Shown here piece by piece: positions 2,611-63,833 of a stretch of DNA of 64,000 nt (position 1 is its first letter; each line of letters opens with the position of its first letter). The position numbers and the translations under genes are program-made. The notes under the pieces were generated by a model that made no database searches, was not told the DNA's origin, and saw nothing but the letters and a program-made list of their open reading frames with translations. The stretch is from Staphylococcus phage AH12: sequence record OR455461.1, one strand, 5' to 3'.

Positions 2611-3309
2611 TTAAATAAATGCATTTTTAATTTTTGCTTTTCTTTCTATATCTTTGAATTCATCTTCTTCTATAAAATCAAAATTATAATTAGACATTAA
2701 TGCATAAGTTAATGTATTAAAAATAGGACTTTCCTTACAATATTTTTCTCCTAAATTACTTATCAAATATATTATAGAACAAGTGTCTTCATCATTATAA
2801 TTCTTTATATTAATTATTATTCTATCTCGTTTTCTATTTTTAGGTTTACTTAATGTAAATATATAGGTATACTTATCCCTTAAATATTTTATTTCTTTAT
2901 GAATATTTTTTATTAATAATTCAGCTTGTTCTTTTTGTTCTTTATTACTAATCATGAATTCAAAGCTCATATTTAATAATGCTCTTTCATCATTAGGATT
3001 ATAAGGTCTATTGTAATTACTTTTATATAACACTATATTTAAAAAATCTTCATTGTTATAATAATCCATATTATTATAATCATTTAAAGATTTCAGTATA
3101 TCAACTATAGTTTCTTTATTTATAAAAGTTTTTAAATAGTCTATATTCATATCACTTAATCTTACTGATTTATCAAAATTGTTAACCATGTTTGGTATTC
3201 TTAAATAAACTGGGTTATCTTTATATAAATCACATAATTGATTAAAACTTAAAGGAATTACTCTAGGACCTATTAGTTCTTTTTCTTTAATTATTCTAAT
3301 ATCAATCAC
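2611..3309 (-). CDS. hypothetical protein, C-terminus ...KIKNAFI (loose member of the xK(D/E)xF(K/I) tail family)
   Basis: 232-aa ORF in a co-oriented array. Confidence 0.5.
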   Translation of the reverse strand: MIDIRIIKEKELIGPRVIPLSFNQLCDLYKDNPVYLRIPNMVNNFDKSVRLSDMNIDYLKTFINKETIVDILKSLNDYNNMDYYNNEDFLNIVLYKSNYNRPYNPNDERALLNMSFEFMISNKEQKEQAELLIKNIHKEIKYLRDKYTYIFTLSKPKNRKRDRIIINIKNYNDEDTCSIIYLISNLGEKYCKESPIFNTLTYALMSNYNFDFIEEDEFKDIERKAKIKNAFI

Positions 3310-3322
3310 TTTCTTTCTATTA

Positions 3323-3985
3323 TTATATAAATAATTCTTTAGTTAATATTGAATTATATTCTTTTTTATCTATAATTTCTACAAAATTTCTATGATCCAA
3401 AAGAACTTTTATCTCATTATTGAATTTATTATAATCATCTGCATACACTGCAATATTATCCAAAATGAATTGAATGATCTTAATATAGTTTGAATAAAAT
3501 AAATTCTCTATAAATTCATCTATTTTATTTTTATCTATTAAAAATATTAATGTCAAATCTAGTACATACTCTCTATTGTAATGATCCAGAGAAACAGATT
3601 TTAAAAAATCTAGATCAATTTCATGTATACTATCTATAAATTCTTTTTGGTTTTCAATTAAATCTGTATAGCTTTTTAAACTGAAATACATATTCATTAT
3701 ATATCTATTTTTAGATGTTTTACTAATAAAGAATTCCAATTTACTATTAAAGAAATCCATATGAACTACTTTCATATTTTCTCTATTAAGAATTTCAAAT
3801 ATTTTATTAGCTATACATTTAGATGCTTTTTCCATATTATTAATTTCTTCATCAGAATTAATTAAATAAATTGATCTGTCTTTATTATCATTAAAGTCAT
3901 AGATCTTTTTATTACCGTTGGCACTTTTTTTATGATAAAATATATTTACATTTTCTTTGTTAAAACGATATAAGTAGTTAACCAT
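3323..3985 (-). CDS. hypothetical protein
   Basis: 220-aa ORF. Confidence 0.5.
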   Translation of the reverse strand: MVNYLYRFNKENVNIFYHKKSANGNKKIYDFNDNKDRSIYLINSDEEINNMEKASKCIANKIFEILNRENMKVVHMDFFNSKLEFFISKTSKNRYIMNMYFSLKSYTDLIENQKEFIDSIHEIDLDFLKSVSLDHYNREYVLDLTLIFLIDKNKIDEFIENLFYSNYIKIIQFILDNIAVYADDYNKFNNEIKVLLDHRNFVEIIDKKEYNSILTKELFI

Positions 3986-4061
3986 AAAAGCATCTCATCC
4001 ATTTCTATATTATAATATAATAAAAAGTTACTATATTACTATGGATGAGATGTTATATAAT

Positions 4062-4904
4062 CTATTTAAAACTTTCTTTTACTGCTATCTTCTTATATTC
4101 ATCTTCTTGTACAAAAGTTATTTTTTCTTTATTTTTATTAATAATATCTTTATACGATATAGAATCTAAATTATCTAGTACTTCATCTTTAAAATATAAA
4201 GAATATAATTCGATACCTTTTTTATCTCTAAAGAAATTACAATTTAGTATTTGGTAATTATATTTTCTCATTAAAACTGATAAGAAATTATTTAATTCTT
4301 CTTTATTAGGAATTAAAAAGAATTTCATATTTTTCATTTCTTTATCATTTATACGATCTCTCCTAGATATATTGATATATGAAGTTATTGTTTTTGAAAT
4401 AACTTCATATAATTTATTTGGAGATGAATAATTATTAAAAAGATAAGGATTGATTTGCTTTCTATTTTTACCTTTTACATAATTATCTAATTTAAATTGA
4501 TACTCTTTAAATCTATTTAATATTTTTCTATTTACTTTATTAGATAAAATTAAATAATAACCTTCTTTAGTACCACGATTTTCTATATATAATATATCTA
4601 TTCTATTATCTATATCTTTTTTAACATGTCTAAATAATTTTTTATTAAATAATTGCATTACTTCATTTATATTAAAATAATTGTCACTATATCTTTCATC
4701 TTCAGGTGTAATATCATGTACAAATATTGTACCTACTTGTGGCATAAATTTTCCATCATTTTTATAATTTGAATTATAATTTACAACAGAATTGATAAAG
4801 AATTTATAAAAATTTTCATCTTCATTATTTTTATATAGCATATTGAATTTTATACTCTCATTATTCTTCTTAGTTAGTCTTTTATCTATTTTAATGATTT
4901 CCAT
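4062..4904 (-). CDS. paralog-family protein (C-terminal ...KIAVKESFK)
   Basis: 280-aa ORF. The C-terminal tail motif is shared with more than 10 other ORFs. Confidence 0.55.
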   Translation of the reverse strand: MEIIKIDKRLTKKNNESIKFNMLYKNNEDENFYKFFINSVVNYNSNYKNDGKFMPQVGTIFVHDITPEDERYSDNYFNINEVMQLFNKKLFRHVKKDIDNRIDILYIENRGTKEGYYLILSNKVNRKILNRFKEYQFKLDNYVKGKNRKQINPYLFNNYSSPNKLYEVISKTITSYINISRRDRINDKEMKNMKFFLIPNKEELNNFLSVLMRKYNYQILNCNFFRDKKGIELYSLYFKDEVLDNLDSISYKDIINKNKEKITFVQEDEYKKIAVKESFK

Positions 4905-44587: not shown

Positions 44588-44615
44588 TAAAAGGTTTCTC
44601 CTTTCTAAAAAAAAA

Positions 44616-44668
44616 AATATATTAACTCAACCTAACCCATTTATATAAATGAGTTAGGTTGAGTTTTT
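44616..44668. terminator. hairpin terminator flanked by A-run and T-run
   Basis: AACTCAACCTAAC / GTTAGGTTGAGTT inverted repeat, then TTTTT. Confidence 0.5.
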
Positions 44669-45161
44669 AATTTAATTTTGTAAATTTAAGATCTATATCG
44701 TAATTATTATTAAGTTCATTGACTTTCTTAACTATTTTATGAGCACAATAATCGTAATTAGTTTTATCCAACAATATATTGAGTTCTTCAATGAAATATT
44801 TATTTAAACGATACATATCTGGGTTTTCTTCTTTTAATTCTATTAATTTATTATTTGTAATTTCTATTTCTTCATTTATTCTTTTTCGAATGAATTCTAA
44901 ATCATTAATATACACTTTACGTTTTTCTAAATCAAATACTATAGCTGGTTTATTTAAAAAAGTTAAAGTCATTTTTCCATCTTCATCAATGACATTGTAA
45001 TTATAAGAAAAGTATTTCATATCAATTGTTAAGTGATCTAGAATAAAAGGCATGAATAATTCATAATTTAAAAATTGACCCATATCTTTCTGTATTTTAT
45101 TTATAATTTTATATTTGGATTCAATTTCTTTTATATTCTTTAATATTTCTTTATTATCCAT
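44667..45161 (-). CDS. hypothetical protein
   Basis: 164 aa. Confidence 0.5.
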   Translation of the reverse strand: MDNKEILKNIKEIESKYKIINKIQKDMGQFLNYELFMPFILDHLTIDMKYFSYNYNVIDEDGKMTLTFLNKPAIVFDLEKRKVYINDLEFIRKRINEEIEITNNKLIELKEENPDMYRLNKYFIEELNILLDKTNYDYCAHKIVKKVNELNNNYDIDLKFTKLN

Positions 45162-55659: not shown

Positions 55660-55677
55660 ACATTTATTCCTCCTTTC

Positions 55678-55968
55678 TTAGTTGAAATGTTGATCTCTAA
55701 TTTCTTCAGCTATTTCTTTTGTTGCTTCTGAGTTTGATTTCCCTAATTCTTCTATCTTTTTAGCTAAGTAATAATTAACATCAGTTTTATCCATTTCCAT
55801 ATATAATTTTAAAATTTTTTCTCTTTCTGGAACTCCTAAATTTAAATATTCAACCTCATTTCTTTGAGTTACACTGTTATAATCACATTCAAATAAATAA
55901 TTACTTATCGCATTTAACTTGTTTACGTCTAAGTATTTTTCTATTTGACTTATTTTGTCAGAAACCAT
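55678..55968 (-). CDS. small protein, paralog of 52202-52459
   Basis: 96 aa. Confidence 0.5.
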   Translation of the reverse strand: MVSDKISQIEKYLDVNKLNAISNYLFECDYNSVTQRNEVEYLNLGVPEREKILKLYMEMDKTDVNYYLAKKIEELGKSNSEATKEIAEEIRDQHFN

Positions 55969-56076
55969 TTATTTCCCACTCCTTAAAATTTATAATTTAT
56001 TTATTTGTACAAAAAATTAAAATAATAAGGATAATGACTAAATAGTCATTATCCAAATTTTAAATATTAATTTATA

Positions 56077-56358
56077 TTATAATAATCTTCTTTCTTCCTG
56101 AATATATATTACTTTATTTCTGTTGATTGTAATTCTCTTTTCATCAACCAATTCAATCTCTATGAAGTCCTCATTCCCTTCATATAATCCATGGAAAATT
56201 CTATCAATGGAATTTGATTCACTATTCAATACATGATAAGCGTCATATCTTAAATCATTCATAGTTATGGTTTTTCCTTCTAGGTATTCACTTTCATAAA
56301 ATTCAATTTTTTCTCCATTTTCAAGTGCCATAATATAAACTTTAACTTTAGTTTTCAT
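56077..56358 (-). CDS. hypothetical protein
   Basis: 93 aa. Confidence 0.45.
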   Translation of the reverse strand: MKTKVKVYIMALENGEKIEFYESEYLEGKTITMNDLRYDAYHVLNSESNSIDRIFHGLYEGNEDFIEIELVDEKRITINRNKVIYIQEERRLL

Positions 56359-56374
56359 AATTAATTCTCCTATT

Positions 56375-56722
56375 CTATATTTGATTATTTTGTTTTAAAT
56401 GAGGTATTAAATCATCATATACATAATTATCTACTCTAATTCCAAAATCCTCAGATGAATCTGTTACCAATATATTATTGAATGTGAATTCATCTTCAAA
56501 TAATAAAGATTTATCAGAAGTATCAATTCTAAATATTCCCTTTATATTGACTGTGTTGTTATAGTTATTTTCATATTCTATGTCTTCGAAAACTAAATAA
56601 ACGTTCTCATCATATTTCTCGCTGTATACTTTCCAAAATCTGTATAAAGATGATTCAATATCCACTCTACCCAATATTTCATTTATAGAATTTAACTCTG
56701 CTTTTTCATAATCTTTACTCAT
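56375..56722 (-). CDS. hypothetical protein
   Basis: 115 aa. Confidence 0.45.
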   Translation of the reverse strand: MSKDYEKAELNSINEILGRVDIESSLYRFWKVYSEKYDENVYLVFEDIEYENNYNNTVNIKGIFRIDTSDKSLLFEDEFTFNNILVTDSSEDFGIRVDNYVYDDLIPHLKQNNQI

Positions 56723-56807
56723 ATCTAATTCACTCTCCTATTTAAAATAATAATAATAGATAATAACTTTTTTAATTATTATCTATTATTTAGTTCATTG
56801 AAATCAT

Positions 56808-57098
56808 TTATCTAATGACTTCTTTAATTTCTTGTAATGCATAATATCCTGGGTTAAATACATGCATTAATCCATATCCAAATAAAGCTAAATCAATTCC
56901 AATAACTAAAATAACGATCAATACAATGATAGGTGATAAGTTACCCATGACATTTAATTTTTTAAATGCATAATACAAAATAGCAAATACGATTAAACTT
57001 AATAAAACTAAACCTAATCCTACGAAAACTTGATGTGTTACTAATGCACTCCAACTTGTACCTGCTGCCTTTTCTACTGAACTTGTTAATTCTTTCAT
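56808..57098 (-). CDS. membrane protein (2 transmembrane helices)
   Basis: 96 aa. Confidence 0.45.
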   Translation of the reverse strand: MKELTSSVEKAAGTSWSALVTHQVFVGLGLVLLSLIVFAILYYAFKKLNVMGNLSPIIVLIVILVIGIDLALFGYGLMHVFNPGYYALQEIKEVIR

Positions 57099-57233
57099 AT
57101 CTATTACCTCCTGTTTTTTATTAGAAAGATAATGATTGATATTATCATCATCTCATTATAATAATATATGCTTAAAATACATTTAATTTCAATATAATAG
57201 AGGTAATGACAAGTTAATGTCATTACCTCTTTA

Positions 57234-57384
57234 TTCACCTTAGTAAGTAAAATACTATTACTATAACTAAAATTGCAACTACAATTCCAGACCATCCCAC
57301 AGGTGGTATTATTGCTAATGGTCCACGGAATATAATACCTAGTATTAATAAAATTACTAGTATAGCTATTAACCAAGTAATCAT
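57234..57384 (-). CDS. very small membrane protein (49 aa, missing from the ORF track)
   Basis: MITWLIAILVILLILGIIFRGPLAIIPPVGWSGIVVAILVIVIVFYLLR read from the sequence. Follows a GGTAATGAC-type hairpin. Confidence 0.3.
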
Positions 57385-57450
57385 ATAGTTACTCCTTTCT
57401 TAATCTCCATATATTATGAGATATAAGGATAAAAGGTTGTTTTATAATTA

Positions 57451-57750
57451 TTATTCTTCTTGATCATAATCAGTTCTAGTATCTTTAAGTAAATCTGAAT
57501 CTATACCAGCACCTAATAAATAATAGTAAGTGGTATTCAAAGTAGTTTTATCAGAAAGATCGTCTGGTAAATCTTCTAGACGAGTATAACCATACATTGA
57601 AATGTTTTTATTCATTTCCTGTTTAGCATTCATAGAGTCTGAACGAGGACCCATTAATTCTCTTAATATATCTTGAGACCCAATTGCTCTTAATGCTGAA
57701 GCTTCCATATTTGATACAGAAGCTACCTTGTCCGCACCTGAGAGTTGCGA
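57451..57750 (-). CDS. RNA polymerase beta C-terminal gene #2, terminal exon (starts ..QLSGADKVASVSNMEASALRAIGSQDILRELMGPRSDS)
   Basis: The frame is open upstream of the Met. QLSGADKVASVSNMEASALRAIG..LRELMGPRSDSMNAKQEMNKNI aligns to [48 protein letters not shown]. Confidence 0.6.
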   Translation of the reverse strand, partial: SQLSGADKVASVSNMEASALRAIGSQDILRELMGPRSDSMNAKQEMNKNISMYGYTRLEDLPDDLSDKTTLNTTYYYLLGAGIDSDLLKDTRTDYDQEE

Positions 57751-57897
57751 TTATCCTATATATTTCTATATAAGTCAGACTATATCTTATACTCTTTATG
57801 AGTACCATTATATTTAGTCGTTGAACAATCAATTTGATTGATGCTGATTAACTTTAATTTTCTCAGCAATTAATAATATTATCATTATCATATTACT
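57751..57897 (-). ncRNA. ultra-compact group I intron (beta #2, core 57777-57880)
   Basis: P/Q/R/S core. P9 hairpin TATATAGAAATATATA with a GAAA tetraloop. The element ends ...GGATAATCG before the exon. Confidence 0.5.
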
Positions 57898-58020
57898 ATA
57901 ATAAGCGGCCAAAATTTTTTCATTAAAACCGGTTTTCATTGATCTCGAGGAAGCGTCTAGACTGTATGCGTTTTTCTTTGAGAGGAGCTGCTGTACAATA
58001 ACTTCATACACTATTTTTAA
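57898..58020 (-). CDS. RNA polymerase beta gene #2, internal mini-exon (~120 nt; ..LKIVYEVIVQQLLSKKNAYSLDASSRSMKTGFNEKIL..)
   Basis: Locally G+C-richer island flanked by intron cores. SRSMKTG aligns to ARSTG. The ORF-track entry 57829-58011 reads through into the intron. Boundaries approximate. Confidence 0.4.
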
Positions 58021-58161
58021 TTAGTGTTTAGACTATATATTCATCCTATTAGGAGTTTTAATTTTAGTCGTTGAACTTTATTAAGATTATTCACTTAATA
58101 TTAGATGCTGATTAGCTTCATAAACTTTCCCAGCAATTTAAAAAATTTTACATATACATTA
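58021..58161 (-). ncRNA. ultra-compact group I intron (beta #2, core 58030-58140)
   Basis: P/Q/R/S core. P has TTGCTGGG, which gives a G-U wobble with Q, a change tolerated only at the RNA level. Confidence 0.45.
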
Positions 58162-58205
58162 CTGCATAAGGAGGCTACAACAGTATTTAACCTCTTAACA
58201 TGTAA
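58162..58205 (-). CDS. proposed micro-exon (..HVKRLNTVVASL..) of beta #2
   Basis: Inference. HVKRLNTVV aligns to MLKLNHLVD of bacterial beta. A G+C-richer island between two intron cores. Confidence 0.3.
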
Positions 58206-58340
58206 GTCATTTATCTTTACTATATTCATTTTATAGATGAGACTATATCTTCTTTGCCATATATTTAGTCGTTGAACAATTCAATTGATGCTGATCAACT
58301 TTAAATGTCTTTTCAGCAGTTAATATGATTTTAATTGAGC
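58206..58340 (-). ncRNA. ultra-compact group I intron (beta #2, core 58242-58325)
   Basis: P/Q/R/S core with correlated P and Q substitutions (CTGCTGA / GATCAGCATC). P9 hairpin CTATAaaatgaaTATAG. Confidence 0.45.
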
Positions 58341-60026
58341 TCATACATAAGTTAACCCAACTGGTACTTTATATCTAGTTCTTAATGGATCTTCTTTATT
58401 TCCATCATGTCTATAATAAACAAATTCATTCATAGGAACTTCTAATTTGTCTAAAGCTTCTTGTATTTGATTAATATCAGCTTCAGATTTATTAGGTAAA
58501 ACTTCTATATAGAAATTCTCATCACTATTTATGAAACGTTTAATATATCTCATAAATTCTTCATCATTCATTTCATCGTAAAATGATTTATAATTTCTCA
58601 TATTACTTTGATCTTTATCTAATGAAGATATAACATCAAGTATTTTATTTTGAATTTCTTGACGTTTCTTTTTATTGTCGCTTACTGCTTCATTTAAGAT
58701 TGATTCTGGTTCTAGAATAGTTTCATTTAAAGTATTTTCATTGAATTCCATAAAGAATCTTTCGATTATTTCTATATCACTAGATATTGCTTTTTGGAAT
58801 TCAAAACTAGCAGGAATTTCTTTAACACTAAATTTGAATTCTCCATTATCTTTAACATTCTCATCGAAACCAAATTTGTCTGCACTATATCTATTAATAT
58901 CTTCCATATTACCAAATATAATTGGACTATCAATACTAAAGTCTGCTAATACATATCCTTGTCCATTATATGACACAGGGAAAAGTTTTATTCTATTTTT
59001 AGATGGTTCTACATATGAAATTAACTCTATAGATTTGATCCCTAATTTCTTTTCCAATATTTTAAAATAAAGTAAAGATAATAGGTTAGGATTTATTCTT
59101 CCTTGATCTGGTTTAATAGAGAAGTTTTTATCTAATATCATTGAAGGAGTTACTGTATAATATACTTCTTCAGATTTATCTTCAGTAAATACAGGTTTAG
59201 AATTTTTAGTTTTATTATATAGGTAATTAAAAACATCTAATTCATTTTCTAATTGATACTCATAAATTATATCATTTAATTTATTATCAAATTCATAGTC
59301 TCCATAGAATTTATAGATGTCAGTTTCATTATATTTCAAAACTTCTTTATTTGTGAATAAAGGTGAATTGAGTACATTATTCTCTGTAAATATTTTATTG
59401 TATATAATATCTTCTTTAGAATCTGAGAAAATATTATTTCCCATAGATTCTAAAACTTTTACTAAAGTTCTTAATTTAGCATCATTATAGAAATTATACT
59501 TATCTTTATTATAACTTACATATTCTTCAGAATTTAAATACTCACTAAAATCTTTTCTTTTAGTTGAATCTTTACTTAGAAATCTAACTTTAGTAACTTC
59601 TGTAAGCTTATCAATATCATTCAAAATAGTTTTAATACTGCCAGTATCGTTAATAACGATAGGATTTCCACCTTTATAATCTCCAGCATAATCTATTAAT
59701 ATATCTTCTTCTCTACTCTTTTGATTTTGAAGAACGATGAATCTAATTTGTGTATTATCATTAAAATACTTAATTAAACTAATATCAAACCAACAAGAAT
59801 TTCCTTTTTTATCATGAATTTGATTTTCATTATAATCTAATAGAAAATCTATTTCTGATTCAGTGACTAATATTTCTGTTTCATTCACTAAATCAATAGG
59901 AGATTTAATTACACTGATATTATCTGATCCACATTCAGAACAAGATGTAATATCTTCATTATATTCTTGAACTTTGCTACAAGAATTACATCTAACGTAT
60001 TTATTTTTCAATTCATTCACTTCCAA
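58341..60026 (-). CDS. RNA polymerase beta C-terminal gene #2, exon 1 (N-terminal Zn ribbon; AGDYKGG and ..[19 protein letters not shown] blocks)
   Basis: [14 protein letters not shown] aligns to [40 protein letters not shown] aligns to [22 protein letters not shown]. The ORF ends where gene #1 is also interrupted. Confidence 0.5.
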   Translation of the reverse strand: [561 protein letters not shown]

Positions 60027-60088: not shown

Positions 60089-60147
60089 AGGTAATGACCA
60101 AATTAATGATCATTACCTGTATTTAATATTATTTATAATGAATATAC
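60089..60147 (-). promoter_or_regulatory. GGTAATGAC-type hairpin + AT-rich TATAAT-like element
   Basis: AGGTAATGACCAAATTAATGATCATTACCT followed by GTATTTAATATTATTTATAATG. Confidence 0.35.
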
Positions 60148-60172: not shown

Positions 60173-63100
60173 TTAATTTGTTTTAATAATTGATGCATCA
60201 ACACAATACTCACTATCATTTAATTTCATTAAAGGATTTCCGAAAGTTGTACGTTTATAAGTGTTTATTTCAGATAAAGGTACATTGATAGTTTTATTTT
60301 CAGTAACTAATAATAGATTGTCTTCTTCATCATTATCAATCATACTAATGTACATTACTGAATCTTTATCATCTTTAAATTTAGCTGCAATAACTCCTTT
60401 AATTGATCTAGATTTAACTGGTATCTCATCTATTTCAACTTTCTTAGCTAAACTTTTATGAGTGACAATTAGTACTTTATCTTGACCTGAATCAATGACA
60501 GTTGAAGCAACCTTATTATTTTTATTAATTGTAGTATTACTGAAAATAGCTGATCCTATAGTTGTTCGTTTTTGAACTGGAACTAACTCATGAGAGAATC
60601 TAATCATATTTCCCTTTTCAGATATCGCAACTAAATTAAAAGGTTTCTTAGAGTGTACATTATGAACATTTACAACTCTATCATCTTCATTAAGCTTAAT
60701 TAAAATTACTCCTGATCTACTAATTTCTTCAACCATAACCATTTTAATTTTATTTAATTCAGTAGTGACTACAAAAGCTGTATCTGGGTCTTTTAATTCT
60801 TCATCAGTTAATGTGAAAGCTTTAACGATATTTTCTTTTTTAGTAAATCTAGTAATATCTTTACCAAAGTTATTTAATGATTTAATTTCTGGGAATTCAT
60901 ATACCTTATCATAGAATAACTTACCTTGATCTGTTACTAGGAATAAATTATCTTTACTATTAGCGTTGAATATATTTAGAGGTACATCTCCATCAGATAA
61001 TTTGCCAATACTAATACCTTTACCATTACGTTTTTGAGGTTTACTCACTTCAGCTTTAACCTTTTTAATTTTACCCTGTTTAGTTATAATGACCATGAAT
61101 TCTTCATCTTTAACTAATAAATCTTTATTGTCTGATTTAAAATCTAAATCGGAATATTTAGTAATTCTAGTTCTCTTAAGTGTATTTTTATCTTTCTTAA
61201 TTTCTTTTAATTCTTCTACAATAAGATTTTTTAGTTTATTAACATCTTTCATGTATTCCATTTCAGAATTAACTATTTCTTCTTTTTCATTCTTTTCTTC
61301 AATAAGTTTATTTACTTCAAGATTATTAATTGTATATAGCTTCATATCAGCTACATATGCTGCTTGAGCATGTGATATATTAAATTTCTTACTAACTGTA
61401 TCAATAATATCTTCTTTACCTTTACCAGACTTAACAATCTTAATTAATTGATCTATATTCTTAGAATCTAATACAACTAGCAATCCTTCTATAATATGAA
61501 TACGACTTCTTAAATCTTTAATTTTAAATGACTTAATACGTTTAACAGTAGATTGTCTAAATTCAATCCATCTATCAAGAATATTTAATAAATTAGTTTC
61601 AATAAGCTTATTATTATCTACTAATTTAATATCAAAATTAACTCTAGAAGTTACAGTTTTAATTTTATATAATTGATTAAGTGCTAAATCTAAGTCTGTC
61701 GATTTTGTATATTGTAATATTAAATTAACATTACCTTTTTGAGATCCATCAGAAATATTCTTAAGTCCATCTAATCTTTCTTCTTTATAAGCTTCTTTAA
61801 TAGCTTCAATCATTCTTTCTAAAGTTATATTATATGGAATTTCTGTTATTGTTAATGTAGATTTACTTTCATCTTTTTCAATAACTGATCTTAATAACAT
61901 TGATCCTTTTCCTGTTCGATAATATTTCTCTAGATCATCTACATAAGCTTCTCCACCATAAGGAAATTGTGGTCTAAAATTATTATCTTTAATTAATGTC
62001 TTCAATTGTTTATTAGGATTTTTAAGTCTATCAATAGTAATATTAACTACATCATTAATATCATGTGGAGGTAAATCAGAACGATGTCCTCCTCCACCAA
62101 TACCAAAACTACCATTGACTAATATATAAGGTAATTTAGAAGGTAACACTAAAGGTTCTAACATTGATCCATCAAAGTTTTTAACCATATTAACTGCATT
62201 ATCATTGATATTATCTAATAAGTTTCTTTCTGAGAACTTATTCAATCTCATCTCTGTATTATGGTGAATAAAACCTTCAGCCATAAATGAGTGGTCTTCA
62301 GTATCAACTCTAATTGAGTATACAGTTTCTTCTTCATCTAAAGATTTAATAGATTTAACTTTATCAAAATATGTGTTATTATCTAAATACTTAGATATGA
62401 ATAATAGTAAGTGATCATTATCCAATATTTCAATACCATATTCTTCCTCTAATAGATTAAAATTATTTAAGAAATTCTTTCTTGTATTGAATAATTCTGG
62501 ATAAAAGTAATTAGTCATTTTTCTTTCATCTAATACTTCATCTAAGAAAGGTATAATTTGATATTTATTAGGTTTATCATCTCTGTACATATCTATTATA
62601 CTTTCGATTTTACTATTATATAGTTCATCATCTTTAATTAAATGATTAACTAAGTTTTTAAGTGAATGAATATCTTGTATTTGTAGTCTAAACGTATCAG
62701 TACTGAATTCATTTATCACAGAATATATTCCAAATTGAGATAATAATACAGATATTTCTTGCATAAATCGTTTACTATAACTTTCTATAATTAAACCAAC
62801 ATTATCTACAATCTCACTATCTTGTCTAAATAATTCCATTAAAAATTCTCTTTTATATCCTAAACAAGCTTCAAGAATTTTATCAGGTAATATTTTTTCA
62901 GTCTCAATAGATTTCATTAAAATTCCATATTCAGGGTCTAAAGTCTTTTTAAAATATTTTTGAGATAAAAGTTCTCCCCATTTTCTAAAGCTCTCTTTTT
63001 CATTATCATTTAGATTTTTACTTCTGAAATCCTTAAGATCATTCTTTTGTAAAGTTCTATTTATCAAGTAATCATCTTCATTAATTTCATCCATTGTCTT

Positions 63101-63727
63101 CCATTTAAAGTCTAAACCTTTACTTTCATGTTTAGTAATAGTTAATAAAGGATGATTTGATGTTGCTTTAATATTCTTACCAGATTCAGTTTCTAATTCC
63201 ATTACTTTATGTTTTCCTGAATTAAAGAACTTACTAGCTTTTACTGATTTTCTTCTAAAATCTTTTACTACTTTATCAATATTATGTGTAGTATCTAAAT
63301 CTGTATTAGGTACAATATCTTTAATACGTTTTAGTTCACCTTCAGATAATTCTACAATATGATTTCCTGTTAAACAATAACGTGAAGCGGCTGCAGAAGC
63401 TCCTGTAATAGAACCAAATGCACCATGTCCTTCAATTAATGGTTGGTTCATAGAAAACGGTGTAATCATATTAACAGCAGAATCATAAATACCATCATTA
63501 CTATGTGGATGTAATATAGTAGTATCACCAGCAATTCTAGCAGATTTAGCAAATTTCTTATCGGATCTATAACCGTTTTTATACATAATGTATAATATTT
63601 TTCTTTGAATAGGTTTCAAACCATCTCTAATATCTGGTATTTGACGATTTGTATTAATCTCATTAAAATAAATCATCATATTATCATGAACTACTTCTTT
63701 TAAATCTTTCTTAAAAATCTCTGCCAT
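60173..63727 (-). CDS. type IIA topoisomerase subunit A (GyrA/ParC-like) precursor containing an intein
   Basis: N-terminal RDGLKPIQRKILY and GDTTILHPHSNDGIYDSAVNM, then AASRY (catalytic tyrosine). C-terminal GyrA-box-like QKRNGKGISIG and beta-pinwheel-like repeats. Confidence 0.75.
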   Translation of the reverse strand: MAEIFKKDLKEVVHDNMMIYFNEINTNRQIPDIRDGLKPIQRKILYIMYKNGYRSDKKFAKSARIAGDTTILHPHSNDGIYDSAVNMITPFSMNQPLIEGHGAFGSITGASAAASRYCLTGNHIVELSEGELKRIKDIVPNTDLDTTHNIDKVVKDFRRKSVKASKFFNSGKHKVMELETESGKNIKATSNHPLLTITKHESKGLDFKWKTMDEINEDDYLINRTLQKNDLKDFRSKNLNDNEKESFRKWGELLSQKYFKKTLDPEYGILMKSIETEKILPDKILEACLGYKREFLMELFRQDSEIVDNVGLIIESYSKRFMQEISVLLSQFGIYSVINEFSTDTFRLQIQDIHSLKNLVNHLIKDDELYNSKIESIIDMYRDDKPNKYQIIPFLDEVLDERKMTNYFYPELFNTRKNFLNNFNLLEEEYGIEILDNDHLLLFISKYLDNNTYFDKVKSIKSLDEEETVYSIRVDTEDHSFMAEGFIHHNTEMRLNKFSERNLLDNINDNAVNMVKNFDGSMLEPLVLPSKLPYILVNGSFGIGGGGHRSDLPPHDINDVVNITIDRLKNPNKQLKTLIKDNNFRPQFPYGGEAYVDDLEKYYRTGKGSMLLRSVIEKDESKSTLTITEIPYNITLERMIEAIKEAYKEERLDGLKNISDGSQKGNVNLILQYTKSTDLDLALNQLYKIKTVTSRVNFDIKLVDNNKLIETNLLNILDRWIEFRQSTVKRIKSFKIKDLRSRIHIIEGLLVVLDSKNIDQLIKIVKSGKGKEDIIDTVSKKFNISHAQAAYVADMKLYTINNLEVNKLIEEKNEKEEIVNSEMEYMKDVNKLKNLIVEELKEIKKDKNTLKRTRITKYSDLDFKSDNKDLLVKDEEFMVIITKQGKIKKVKAEVSKPQKRNGKGISIGKLSDGDVPLNIFNANSKDNLFLVTDQGKLFYDKVYEFPEIKSLNNFGKDITRFTKKENIVKAFTLTDEELKDPDTAFVVTTELNKIKMVMVEEISRSGVILIKLNEDDRVVNVHNVHSKKPFNLVAISEKGNMIRFSHELVPVQKRTTIGSAIFSNTTINKNNKVASTVIDSGQDKVLIVTHKSLAKKVEIDEIPVKSRSIKGVIAAKFKDDKDSVMYISMIDNDEEDNLLLVTENKTINVPLSEINTYKRTTFGNPLMKLNDSEYCVDASIIKTN
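62258..63376 (-). mobile_element. intein (373 aa) inserted immediately after the catalytic Tyr of the topoisomerase (AASRY | C...HN | TEMRL)
   Basis: Starts with Cys (CLTGNHIV, block A). TxxH block B (ATSNHPLL). Ends ...SFMAEGFIHHN followed by Thr. The exteins rejoin to AASRYTEMRLNKF, the canonical GyrA active-site context. The central region is large enough for a homing-endonuclease domain. Confidence 0.7.
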
Positions 63728-63786: not shown

Positions 63787-63826
63787 TAAATTAAACCTAA
63801 TACCCATTTTTATTATAGGTATTAGG
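63787..63826. terminator. hairpin terminator
   Basis: AACCTAATACC...GGTATTAGGTT inverted repeat with an AT-rich loop, located between gene ends. Confidence 0.45.
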
Positions 63827-63833
63827 TTAGTTA

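Follow-up and report, generated by a model that had tools for sequence, protein, structure and literature searches.

An intein with a degenerate LAGLIDADG domain directly after the catalytic tyrosine of GyrA in Staphylococcus phage AH12

The gyrA gene and its insert

Staphylococcus phage AH12 (sequence record OR455461.1) encodes a homolog of the DNA gyrase subunit GyrA whose reading frame is interrupted by a long insert, and the sequence studied here is a 64,000-nt stretch of its DNA, hereafter the window, to which all positions refer. The insert is very probably a class 1 intein of the allelic family that sits right after the catalytic tyrosine of GyrA, with a nuclease that has decayed. The gene for the precursor, comprising GyrA and the intein, lies on the minus strand at 60173..63727 (1184 aa, stop codon included) and is recognized by its open reading frame (ORF), by Pfam matches and by identity to the related phage Machias. 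Indeed, this is the sole long ORF that overlaps the interval 62258-63376, and the plus-strand translation of the intein interval is full of stops. Residue 118 of the precursor is the first of the string CLTGNHIV and residue 491 the first of TEMRL, so that the insert comprises residues 118-490 (373 aa) and the junctions read AASRY/CLTGNHIV and GFIHHN/TEMRL, the slash marking the border. An earlier note on this DNA, made by reading the letters, had proposed an intein of 373 residues in a GyrA-like topoisomerase at 62258-63376, and translation of the ORF reproduces its coordinates, length and junctions exactly.

The three parts of the precursor can be delimited precisely on the minus strand. The N-extein (aa 1-117; 63377..63727) ends in AASRY, which aligns to AAAMRY of S. 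aureus GyrA, and its last codon (63377-63379) specifies Tyr117, identified as the catalytic tyrosine from this alignment together with established knowledge; it is the DNA-cleaving active-site residue that corresponds to E. coli Tyr122. The intein follows at 62258..63376, running from Cys1 to Asn373, and is assigned from profiles, from its match to the structure 1AM2 and from borders identical to those of the 'intein' mat_peptide of Machias. The C-extein (aa 491-1184; 60176..62257) starts with Thr+1 (codon 62255-62257), where the Pfam match resumes and where relatives carry HN/TE.R. In particular, the Pfam family DNA_topoisoIV (PF00521) matches the host protein with 301.8 bits and restarts at Thr491, equivalent to profile position 92. 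Upon removal of the insert, the host protein aligns colinearly and without gaps to S. aureus GyrA (AAASRYTEMRL / AAAMRYTEARM), which bears out the earlier placement of the insert immediately after the catalytic tyrosine.

The remainder of the host protein is that of a GyrA. Besides the cleavage-religation domain with the catalytic tyrosine, it carries a C-terminal beta-pinwheel, seen by Pfam as six stretches of DNA_gyraseA_C blades (PF03989), at the start of which the motif QKRNGKG (aa 898-904; 61016..61036, minus strand) presumably represents the GyrA box, as it resembles the gyrase hallmark QRRGGKG. The NCBIfam gyrA equivalog models score about 500-540 bits, under their equivalog cutoffs of 877-1850, thus indicating that the host protein is a divergent phage GyrA.

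Splicing residues and allelic family

Profile searches identify the insert as an intein, as the earlier note had expected of a comparison with intein profiles. The Pfam family Intein_splicing (PF14890) matches the 373 residues with 84.9 bits against a cutoff of 35.8 (E 6e-24), and the NCBIfam family intein_Nterm (TIGR01445) with 38 bits against 24.5, while intein_Cterm (TIGR01443) is borderline, with 15.7 bits for the whole protein and 15.0 for the intein alone against a cutoff of 15.6. The N-terminal splicing region (intein residues 1-108, blocks A and B; 63053..63376, minus strand) matches TIGR01445, corresponds residue for residue to positions 2-108 of the Mxe GyrA intein, and is all-beta, with a predicted local confidence (pLDDT) above 90, in an AlphaFold2 (AF2) model of the intein. 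The C-terminal splicing region (intein residues 329-373, blocks F and G; 62258..62392, minus strand), which runs from VYSIRVDTEDHSF to GFIHHN, aligns to Mxe GyrA 156-199. A search of the modelled structure with Foldseek returns many mini-inteins and the hedgehog Hint domain, in agreement with the fold of an intein splicing domain. In a tblastn search for further inteins in the window, only the gyrA one was found.

The residues needed for class 1 splicing are all in place. The nucleophiles are Cys1 and Thr+1; block B, the TxxH block already pointed out in the earlier note, reads T72-S-N74-H75 (63152..63163, minus strand) and is aligned to TANH of Mxe GyrA; block F is VYSIRVDTEDHSF, with Asp358 and His362; and block G is GFIHHN, with the terminal His372-Asn373. 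In two alignments, A1 and A2, with 17 and 23 relatives at 23-37% identity, block B is conserved, and C1, H75, H372 and N373 are invariant in both, as are V352, S354, V357 and F364, while N74 is invariant in A1 and nearly so in A2.

The insert also belongs to a known allelic family. Its best match by sequence in the PDB is the mini-intein of M. xenopi GyrA (1AM2, E 3.4e-21), to both halves of which residues 2-108 and 329-373 of the phage intein align, with identical block B numbering. The intein alone matches the NCBIfam family NF038098, 'intein-containing DNA gyrase subunit A' (E 3.6e-38), with its residue 1 at profile position 117. A filter-free HMMER scan of 1.84 billion representatives with the intein yielded 435 matches; among the best 150 of these, at least one of the junction motifs AA.RY/C and HN/TE.R is present in 122 and both are present in 94. 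The top representatives are nearly all GyrA inteins, which indicates that the phage intein is homologous to them beyond sharing their site. In a survey of bacteria and archaea with one genome per species, relatives of the phage intein are encoded in at least 375 genomes. The junction AA.RY/C...HN/TE.R is shared by 78 of the 80 best loci, and these 80 span Mycobacterium (many), Solirubrobacterales, Aquificaceae, Cytophagales, Chloroflexota and a few archaeal metagenome-assembled genomes. All in all, both the insertion site, with the Tyr of AA.RY before it and the Thr of TE.R after it, and the homology of the intein itself place the element in the GyrA-intein allelic family, so that the site is the one used by mycobacterial GyrA inteins, as had been claimed from the sequence. 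Among bacterial proteins, GyrA ranks with those that most commonly host inteins (PMC4760082). When 5.8 billion proteins were searched by word index with the intein as query, just two fragments of close relatives were returned.

Within this family, the Mxe GyrA intein (PDB 1AM2, 4OZ6) shares with the phage intein the host protein, the site after the tyrosine, the numbering of C1, T72, N74 and H75, the terminal HN and Thr+1, and it superposes on the phage model with a TM-score of 0.79-0.82 normalised to the target; however, it is 198 aa long, and the place of the 220-aa LAGLIDADG-derived domain of the phage intein is taken by just a short linker. Full-length GyrA inteins of the NF038098 type share the site and the order of domains but differ in length, being typically 419-421 aa against 373 aa in the phage, and are 21-40% identical to the window intein. 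In these inteins intact LLGalvSEG and FLxxLFEGDG motifs lie about 70 aa apart, whereas in the phage intein the first Glu is replaced by Gln and the spacer measures 27 aa.

From the conserved residues and the fold, the 1184-aa precursor made by the phage would most likely be spliced. The split Hint domain (intein 1-108 and 329-373) would excise the 373-aa intein along the standard class 1 route, that is, an N-S acyl shift at Cys1, transesterification to Thr+1, cyclisation of Asn373 and an O-N shift. The predicted products are an 811-aa GyrA with the junction AASRY-TEMRL (junction peptide AASRYTEMRLNK) and the free 373-aa intein. Since the active-site tyrosine and the remaining cleavage domain are kept apart by the insert, the precursor very likely has no activity before splicing. 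That the insert no longer splices, with gyrA either dead or functional as an 1184-aa protein, is extremely improbable: all splicing residues are conserved in ten alleles despite 24-36% amino acid divergence of the intein, GyrA would probably not tolerate an insertion directly behind its catalytic tyrosine, and dN/dS in the extein is 0.04-0.15. Such strong purifying selection implies that gyrA must yield a working GyrA.

The central LAGLIDADG-derived domain

Between the two splicing regions lies a central domain (intein 109-328; 62393..63052, minus strand) which Pfam, the structural model and Foldseek identify as LAGLIDADG-derived and degenerate. The earlier note had considered this region large enough for a homing endonuclease. 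This holds in that the domain is of the LAGLIDADG type, but what is left is a truncated remnant: the Pfam family LAGLIDADG_3 (PF14528) matches it in a single stretch, with 19.0 bits (14.0 in the full protein) against a cutoff of 22.5. An HNH endonuclease in the central region was considered as well and rejected, as Pfam and NCBIfam give no HNH signal.

The decay affects both the motifs and the length of the domain. According to column counts in an alignment of 82 sequences, the place of the motif 1 acid is held by Glu in 53 and Asp in 4 (57/82 acidic). In the window, the motif 1 remnant WGELLSQKYF (62951..62980, minus strand) has Gln139 where the catalytic Glu should be; across the phages the residue is Gln (window, Machias), Asn (MarsHill group) or His (SA1). 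The motif 2 acid, Asp in 64/82 sequences, is kept as Asp186 in FLMELFRQDS (62816..62845, minus strand). The stretch between the motifs measures 27 aa against about 70 in the full-length family, and around 45 residues of the first half-domain are gone.

The AF2 model, built from a 24-sequence alignment (pLDDT 86.9, predicted TM-score 0.89), agrees with this picture. It consists of a split all-beta Hint domain plus the inserted central domain, in which helix 172-186, the one that carries motif 2, is followed by a full beta-beta-alpha-beta-beta-alpha arrangement, while helix 124-136 is followed by short helices only, partly of low confidence. Thus, just one complete alpha-beta-beta-alpha-beta-beta-alpha half-domain is modelled. 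Foldseek matches the model to PI-PfuI (E 3e-15), TliVMA, PI-SceI and Mxe GyrA. PI-PfuI (1DQ3), TliVMA (7QSS) and PI-SceI (1VDE) resemble the phage intein in combining a Hint domain with an inserted LAGLIDADG domain (E 3e-15 to 5e-8), but they reside in other host proteins, are 9-16% identical, and possess two complete half-domains and two catalytic acids. Of what characterizes an active double-motif endonuclease, the phage domain has neither the two catalytic acids nor the two half-domains, and its profile score does not exceed the cutoff.

The element is hence an intein of the bifunctional type that has suffered a deletion of its first endonuclease half-domain and has lost the first of the two catalytic acids. 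The central domain is probably inactive as a nuclease and would not cleave DNA, and the loss of the catalytic acid together with the beta-sheet of the first half-domain means that the element probably no longer homes. It would instead persist by vertical inheritance in the jumbo-phage lineage, where its precise loss at a catalytic site would be difficult.

Several observations pull against a spliced intein with a dead nuclease. Single-motif LAGLIDADG enzymes can work as homodimers, and with Asp186 retained nuclease activity can therefore be envisaged. By the Nei-Gojobori method, dN/dS is 0.17-0.22 in the central domain, 0.14-0.24 in the splicing regions and 0.04-0.15 in the extein, and a dead domain, expected to drift neutrally, should not show a value of about 0.2, so that the central domain may still do something. 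The AF2 model derives from a shallow alignment (24 sequences), and its residues 149-156 are of low confidence. Finally, no splicing experiment for this or any related phage was found in Korn et al. (bioRxiv 10.1101/2020.12.14.422802) or in the paper on phage DC4 (PMC10638138).

These observations lead to two other views of the element. The intein might still be fully mobile, its LAGLIDADG domain, perhaps as a dimer of the intact half-domain, cutting intein-less gyrA and homing between co-infecting jumbo phages. Every allele from the Staphylococcus phages keeps Asp186 of motif 2, purifying selection acts on the central domain, the fold is like that of PI-PfuI and PI-SceI, and the relative branch lengths of intein and extein differ among three phage lineages, so that past exchange is possible. 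Nevertheless, full mobility appears unlikely, as the motif 1 acid is gone in all alleles, with three different replacements (Gln, Asn and His), the first DNA-binding half lacks about 45 residues, the LAGLIDADG_3 score falls under the Pfam cutoff, and an intein-less target allele is not known in the clade.

Alternatively, the insert might have been co-opted as a conditional switch, with temperature- or redox-dependent splicing setting gyrase activity and the central domain tuning it. With the insert at the catalytic tyrosine, splicing would gate activity; the nucleophile is Cys1; and the central domain is under purifying selection though its nuclease motifs have decayed. In addition, related phages plaque and propagate inefficiently at 37 °C (Korn et al., bioRxiv 10.1101/2020.12.14.422802), a growth defect whose coincidence with these facts does not establish a link. 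Against this stands that the purifying selection is equally explained by the need for a foldable precursor, and that many inteins occupy catalytic sites without a demonstrated regulatory role. A switch of this kind is thus very unlikely, and a shade less likely again is its more specific form, in which the intein would act as a conditional gate of gyrase maturation, purifying selection would maintain the decayed LAGLIDADG domain for that reason, and the gate could contribute to the growth failure at 37 °C. For a spliced, vertically inherited intein with a decayed nuclease, the constraint on the central domain is most simply accounted for by a precursor that must fold and splice.

Relatives, earlier annotation and neighbouring elements

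The gyrA intein is already known, being annotated in GenBank and published for related Staphylococcus jumbo phages. In Machias, gene CPT_Machias_238 bears the GenBank annotation 'intein-containing DNA gyrase subunit A', and a 1119-nt mat_peptide labelled 'intein' stands at the corresponding position with the same borders; gyrA of MarsHill and Madawaska is annotated likewise. The intein of MarsHill gp228 has been described as lying between Y117 and T492 and as containing a LAGLIDADG domain, in the same work that reports a GyrA homolog without intein in phage AR9 (Korn et al., bioRxiv 10.1101/2020.12.14.422802), and the description of the gyrA intein is repeated in the DC4 paper (PMC10638138). 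These inteins share with the one in the window the gene, the insertion point, the borders and a length of 373-374 aa; the published accounts name the central domain a homing endonuclease, whereas in the window its motifs prove degenerate.

As a discovery the intein is therefore minor, since it stands in GenBank feature tables and in two papers and since GyrA is a common intein host. The refinements are that the phage intein is allelic to the laboratory workhorse Mxe GyrA intein, that its endonuclease appears to be a decay intermediate and not a working homing enzyme, which fits the homing cycle for an element fixed in its population, and that the intein predates the Staphylococcus clade. For annotation, the mature GyrA is predicted to have 811 aa with the junction AASRY-TEMRL. 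The exact window GyrA sequence is absent from a collection of 15 billion proteins, which points to a new isolate and not to a new feature.

The distribution of the intein among phages is narrow and uniform. At the DNA level gyrA of the window is 96.2% identical to that of Machias and PB50 and 80-83% identical to that of S6, PALS_2, DC4, MarsHill, Madawaska, LY01 and SA1, and all nine of these related GenBank phages (9/9) carry an intein at the same site. In amino acids, Machias and PB50 are 95% (94.9%) identical to the window in the intein and 99% in the extein, the MarsHill group 76% and 86%, and SA1 64% and 86%, respectively. Across 258 records of phages that encode a homolog of GyrA or ParC, a split match is confined to the Staphylococcus jumbo-phage clade, and the nearest uninterrupted phage homolog is that of the Listeria jumbo phage LPJP1 (46% identity).

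The closest relative beyond the clade is a protein (P0003) encoded on an unannotated contig (L010; Logan ERR13865851 contig 8411, 10350 bp, GC 25%). It shares 68% identity with the window in the extein and 40% in the intein, which occupies the same site and has lost both motif acids. The contig is syntenic with the window, as the gene after gyrA is 34% identical to the 561-aa neighbour of gyrA in the window, and seems to come from a more distant, hitherto undescribed member of the jumbo-phage lineage. The presence of the same intein at 40% identity in this syntenic contig argues that the element predates the Staphylococcus clade and has decayed in the course of vertical inheritance. Neither the window intein nor that of P0003 gave any match in scans of IMG/VR.

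A recent horizontal acquisition was also considered and is disfavoured, since the GC content of the intein (24.1%) is near that of its surroundings (extein 26.1%, window 23.6%) and since the intein is present in all relatives. Separately, the nucleotide distances of the two parts of the gene are discordant: in the C-extein MarsHill and SA1 are close to each other (87-92%) and each is 78-86% identical to the window, while in the intein MarsHill is nearer to the window (77-81%) than to SA1 (69-77%). This discordance, which involves three lineages, could reflect past recombination or intein exchange, or a lineage-specific change of rate.

In LY01 (L003, OR836606.1) gyrA is additionally split by a clean insertion of 2.0 kb at about 2814-4814, just after the GyrA box (…QKRNGKGISIGKLSDG), which is equivalent to window position ~60989. 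The insertion contains a 401-aa TnpB ORF (OrfB_IS605 65 bits, Cas12f1-like TNB 68 bits), and LY01 GyrA is annotated as separate hypothetical proteins. Rfam finds no intron family at the LY01 gyrA locus, either at the gathering threshold or at E<=1, and no TnpB homolog is present in the window; the insertion is either an IS605-family insertion or an IStron-like element.

The remark in the earlier note on 11 introns was not confirmed, as Rfam detects no group I or group II intron family anywhere in the window, whether at its gathering threshold or with the limit relaxed to E<=1. The authors of the DC4 genome report the same outcome for that phage (PMC10638138), and for the introns of related phages the sole basis is protein alignment (Korn et al., bioRxiv 10.1101/2020.12.14.422802). 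A stretch of 2.7 kb without an ORF of at least 120 aa (55660-58340) lies downstream of the 561-aa ORF (58341-60026); in Machias the equivalent gene, the N-terminal part of the virion RNA polymerase beta subunit, is annotated as a three-exon join from alignment alone. If this stretch holds introns, they are of a kind missed by current covariance models.

As regards expression signals, an AAAGGA ribosome-binding site precedes the gyrA ATG by about 8 nt, and a hairpin search found terminator-like hairpins on the minus strand both upstream of gyrA (63794..63828) and directly after its stop codon (60089..60118), a terminator being annotated at the place equivalent to the latter in Machias. Shuffled sequences lead to an expectation of 0.5 such hairpins in the region, where two are present. 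With hairpins on both sides, gyrA looks like a transcription unit of its own. Elsewhere in the window, a palindromic hairpin of ~74 nt (44604-44677) matches an Rfam model of a plant miRNA precursor with 34 and 31 bits on the two strands against a gathering threshold of 102; almost certainly it is no more than a terminator or an inverted repeat between genes.

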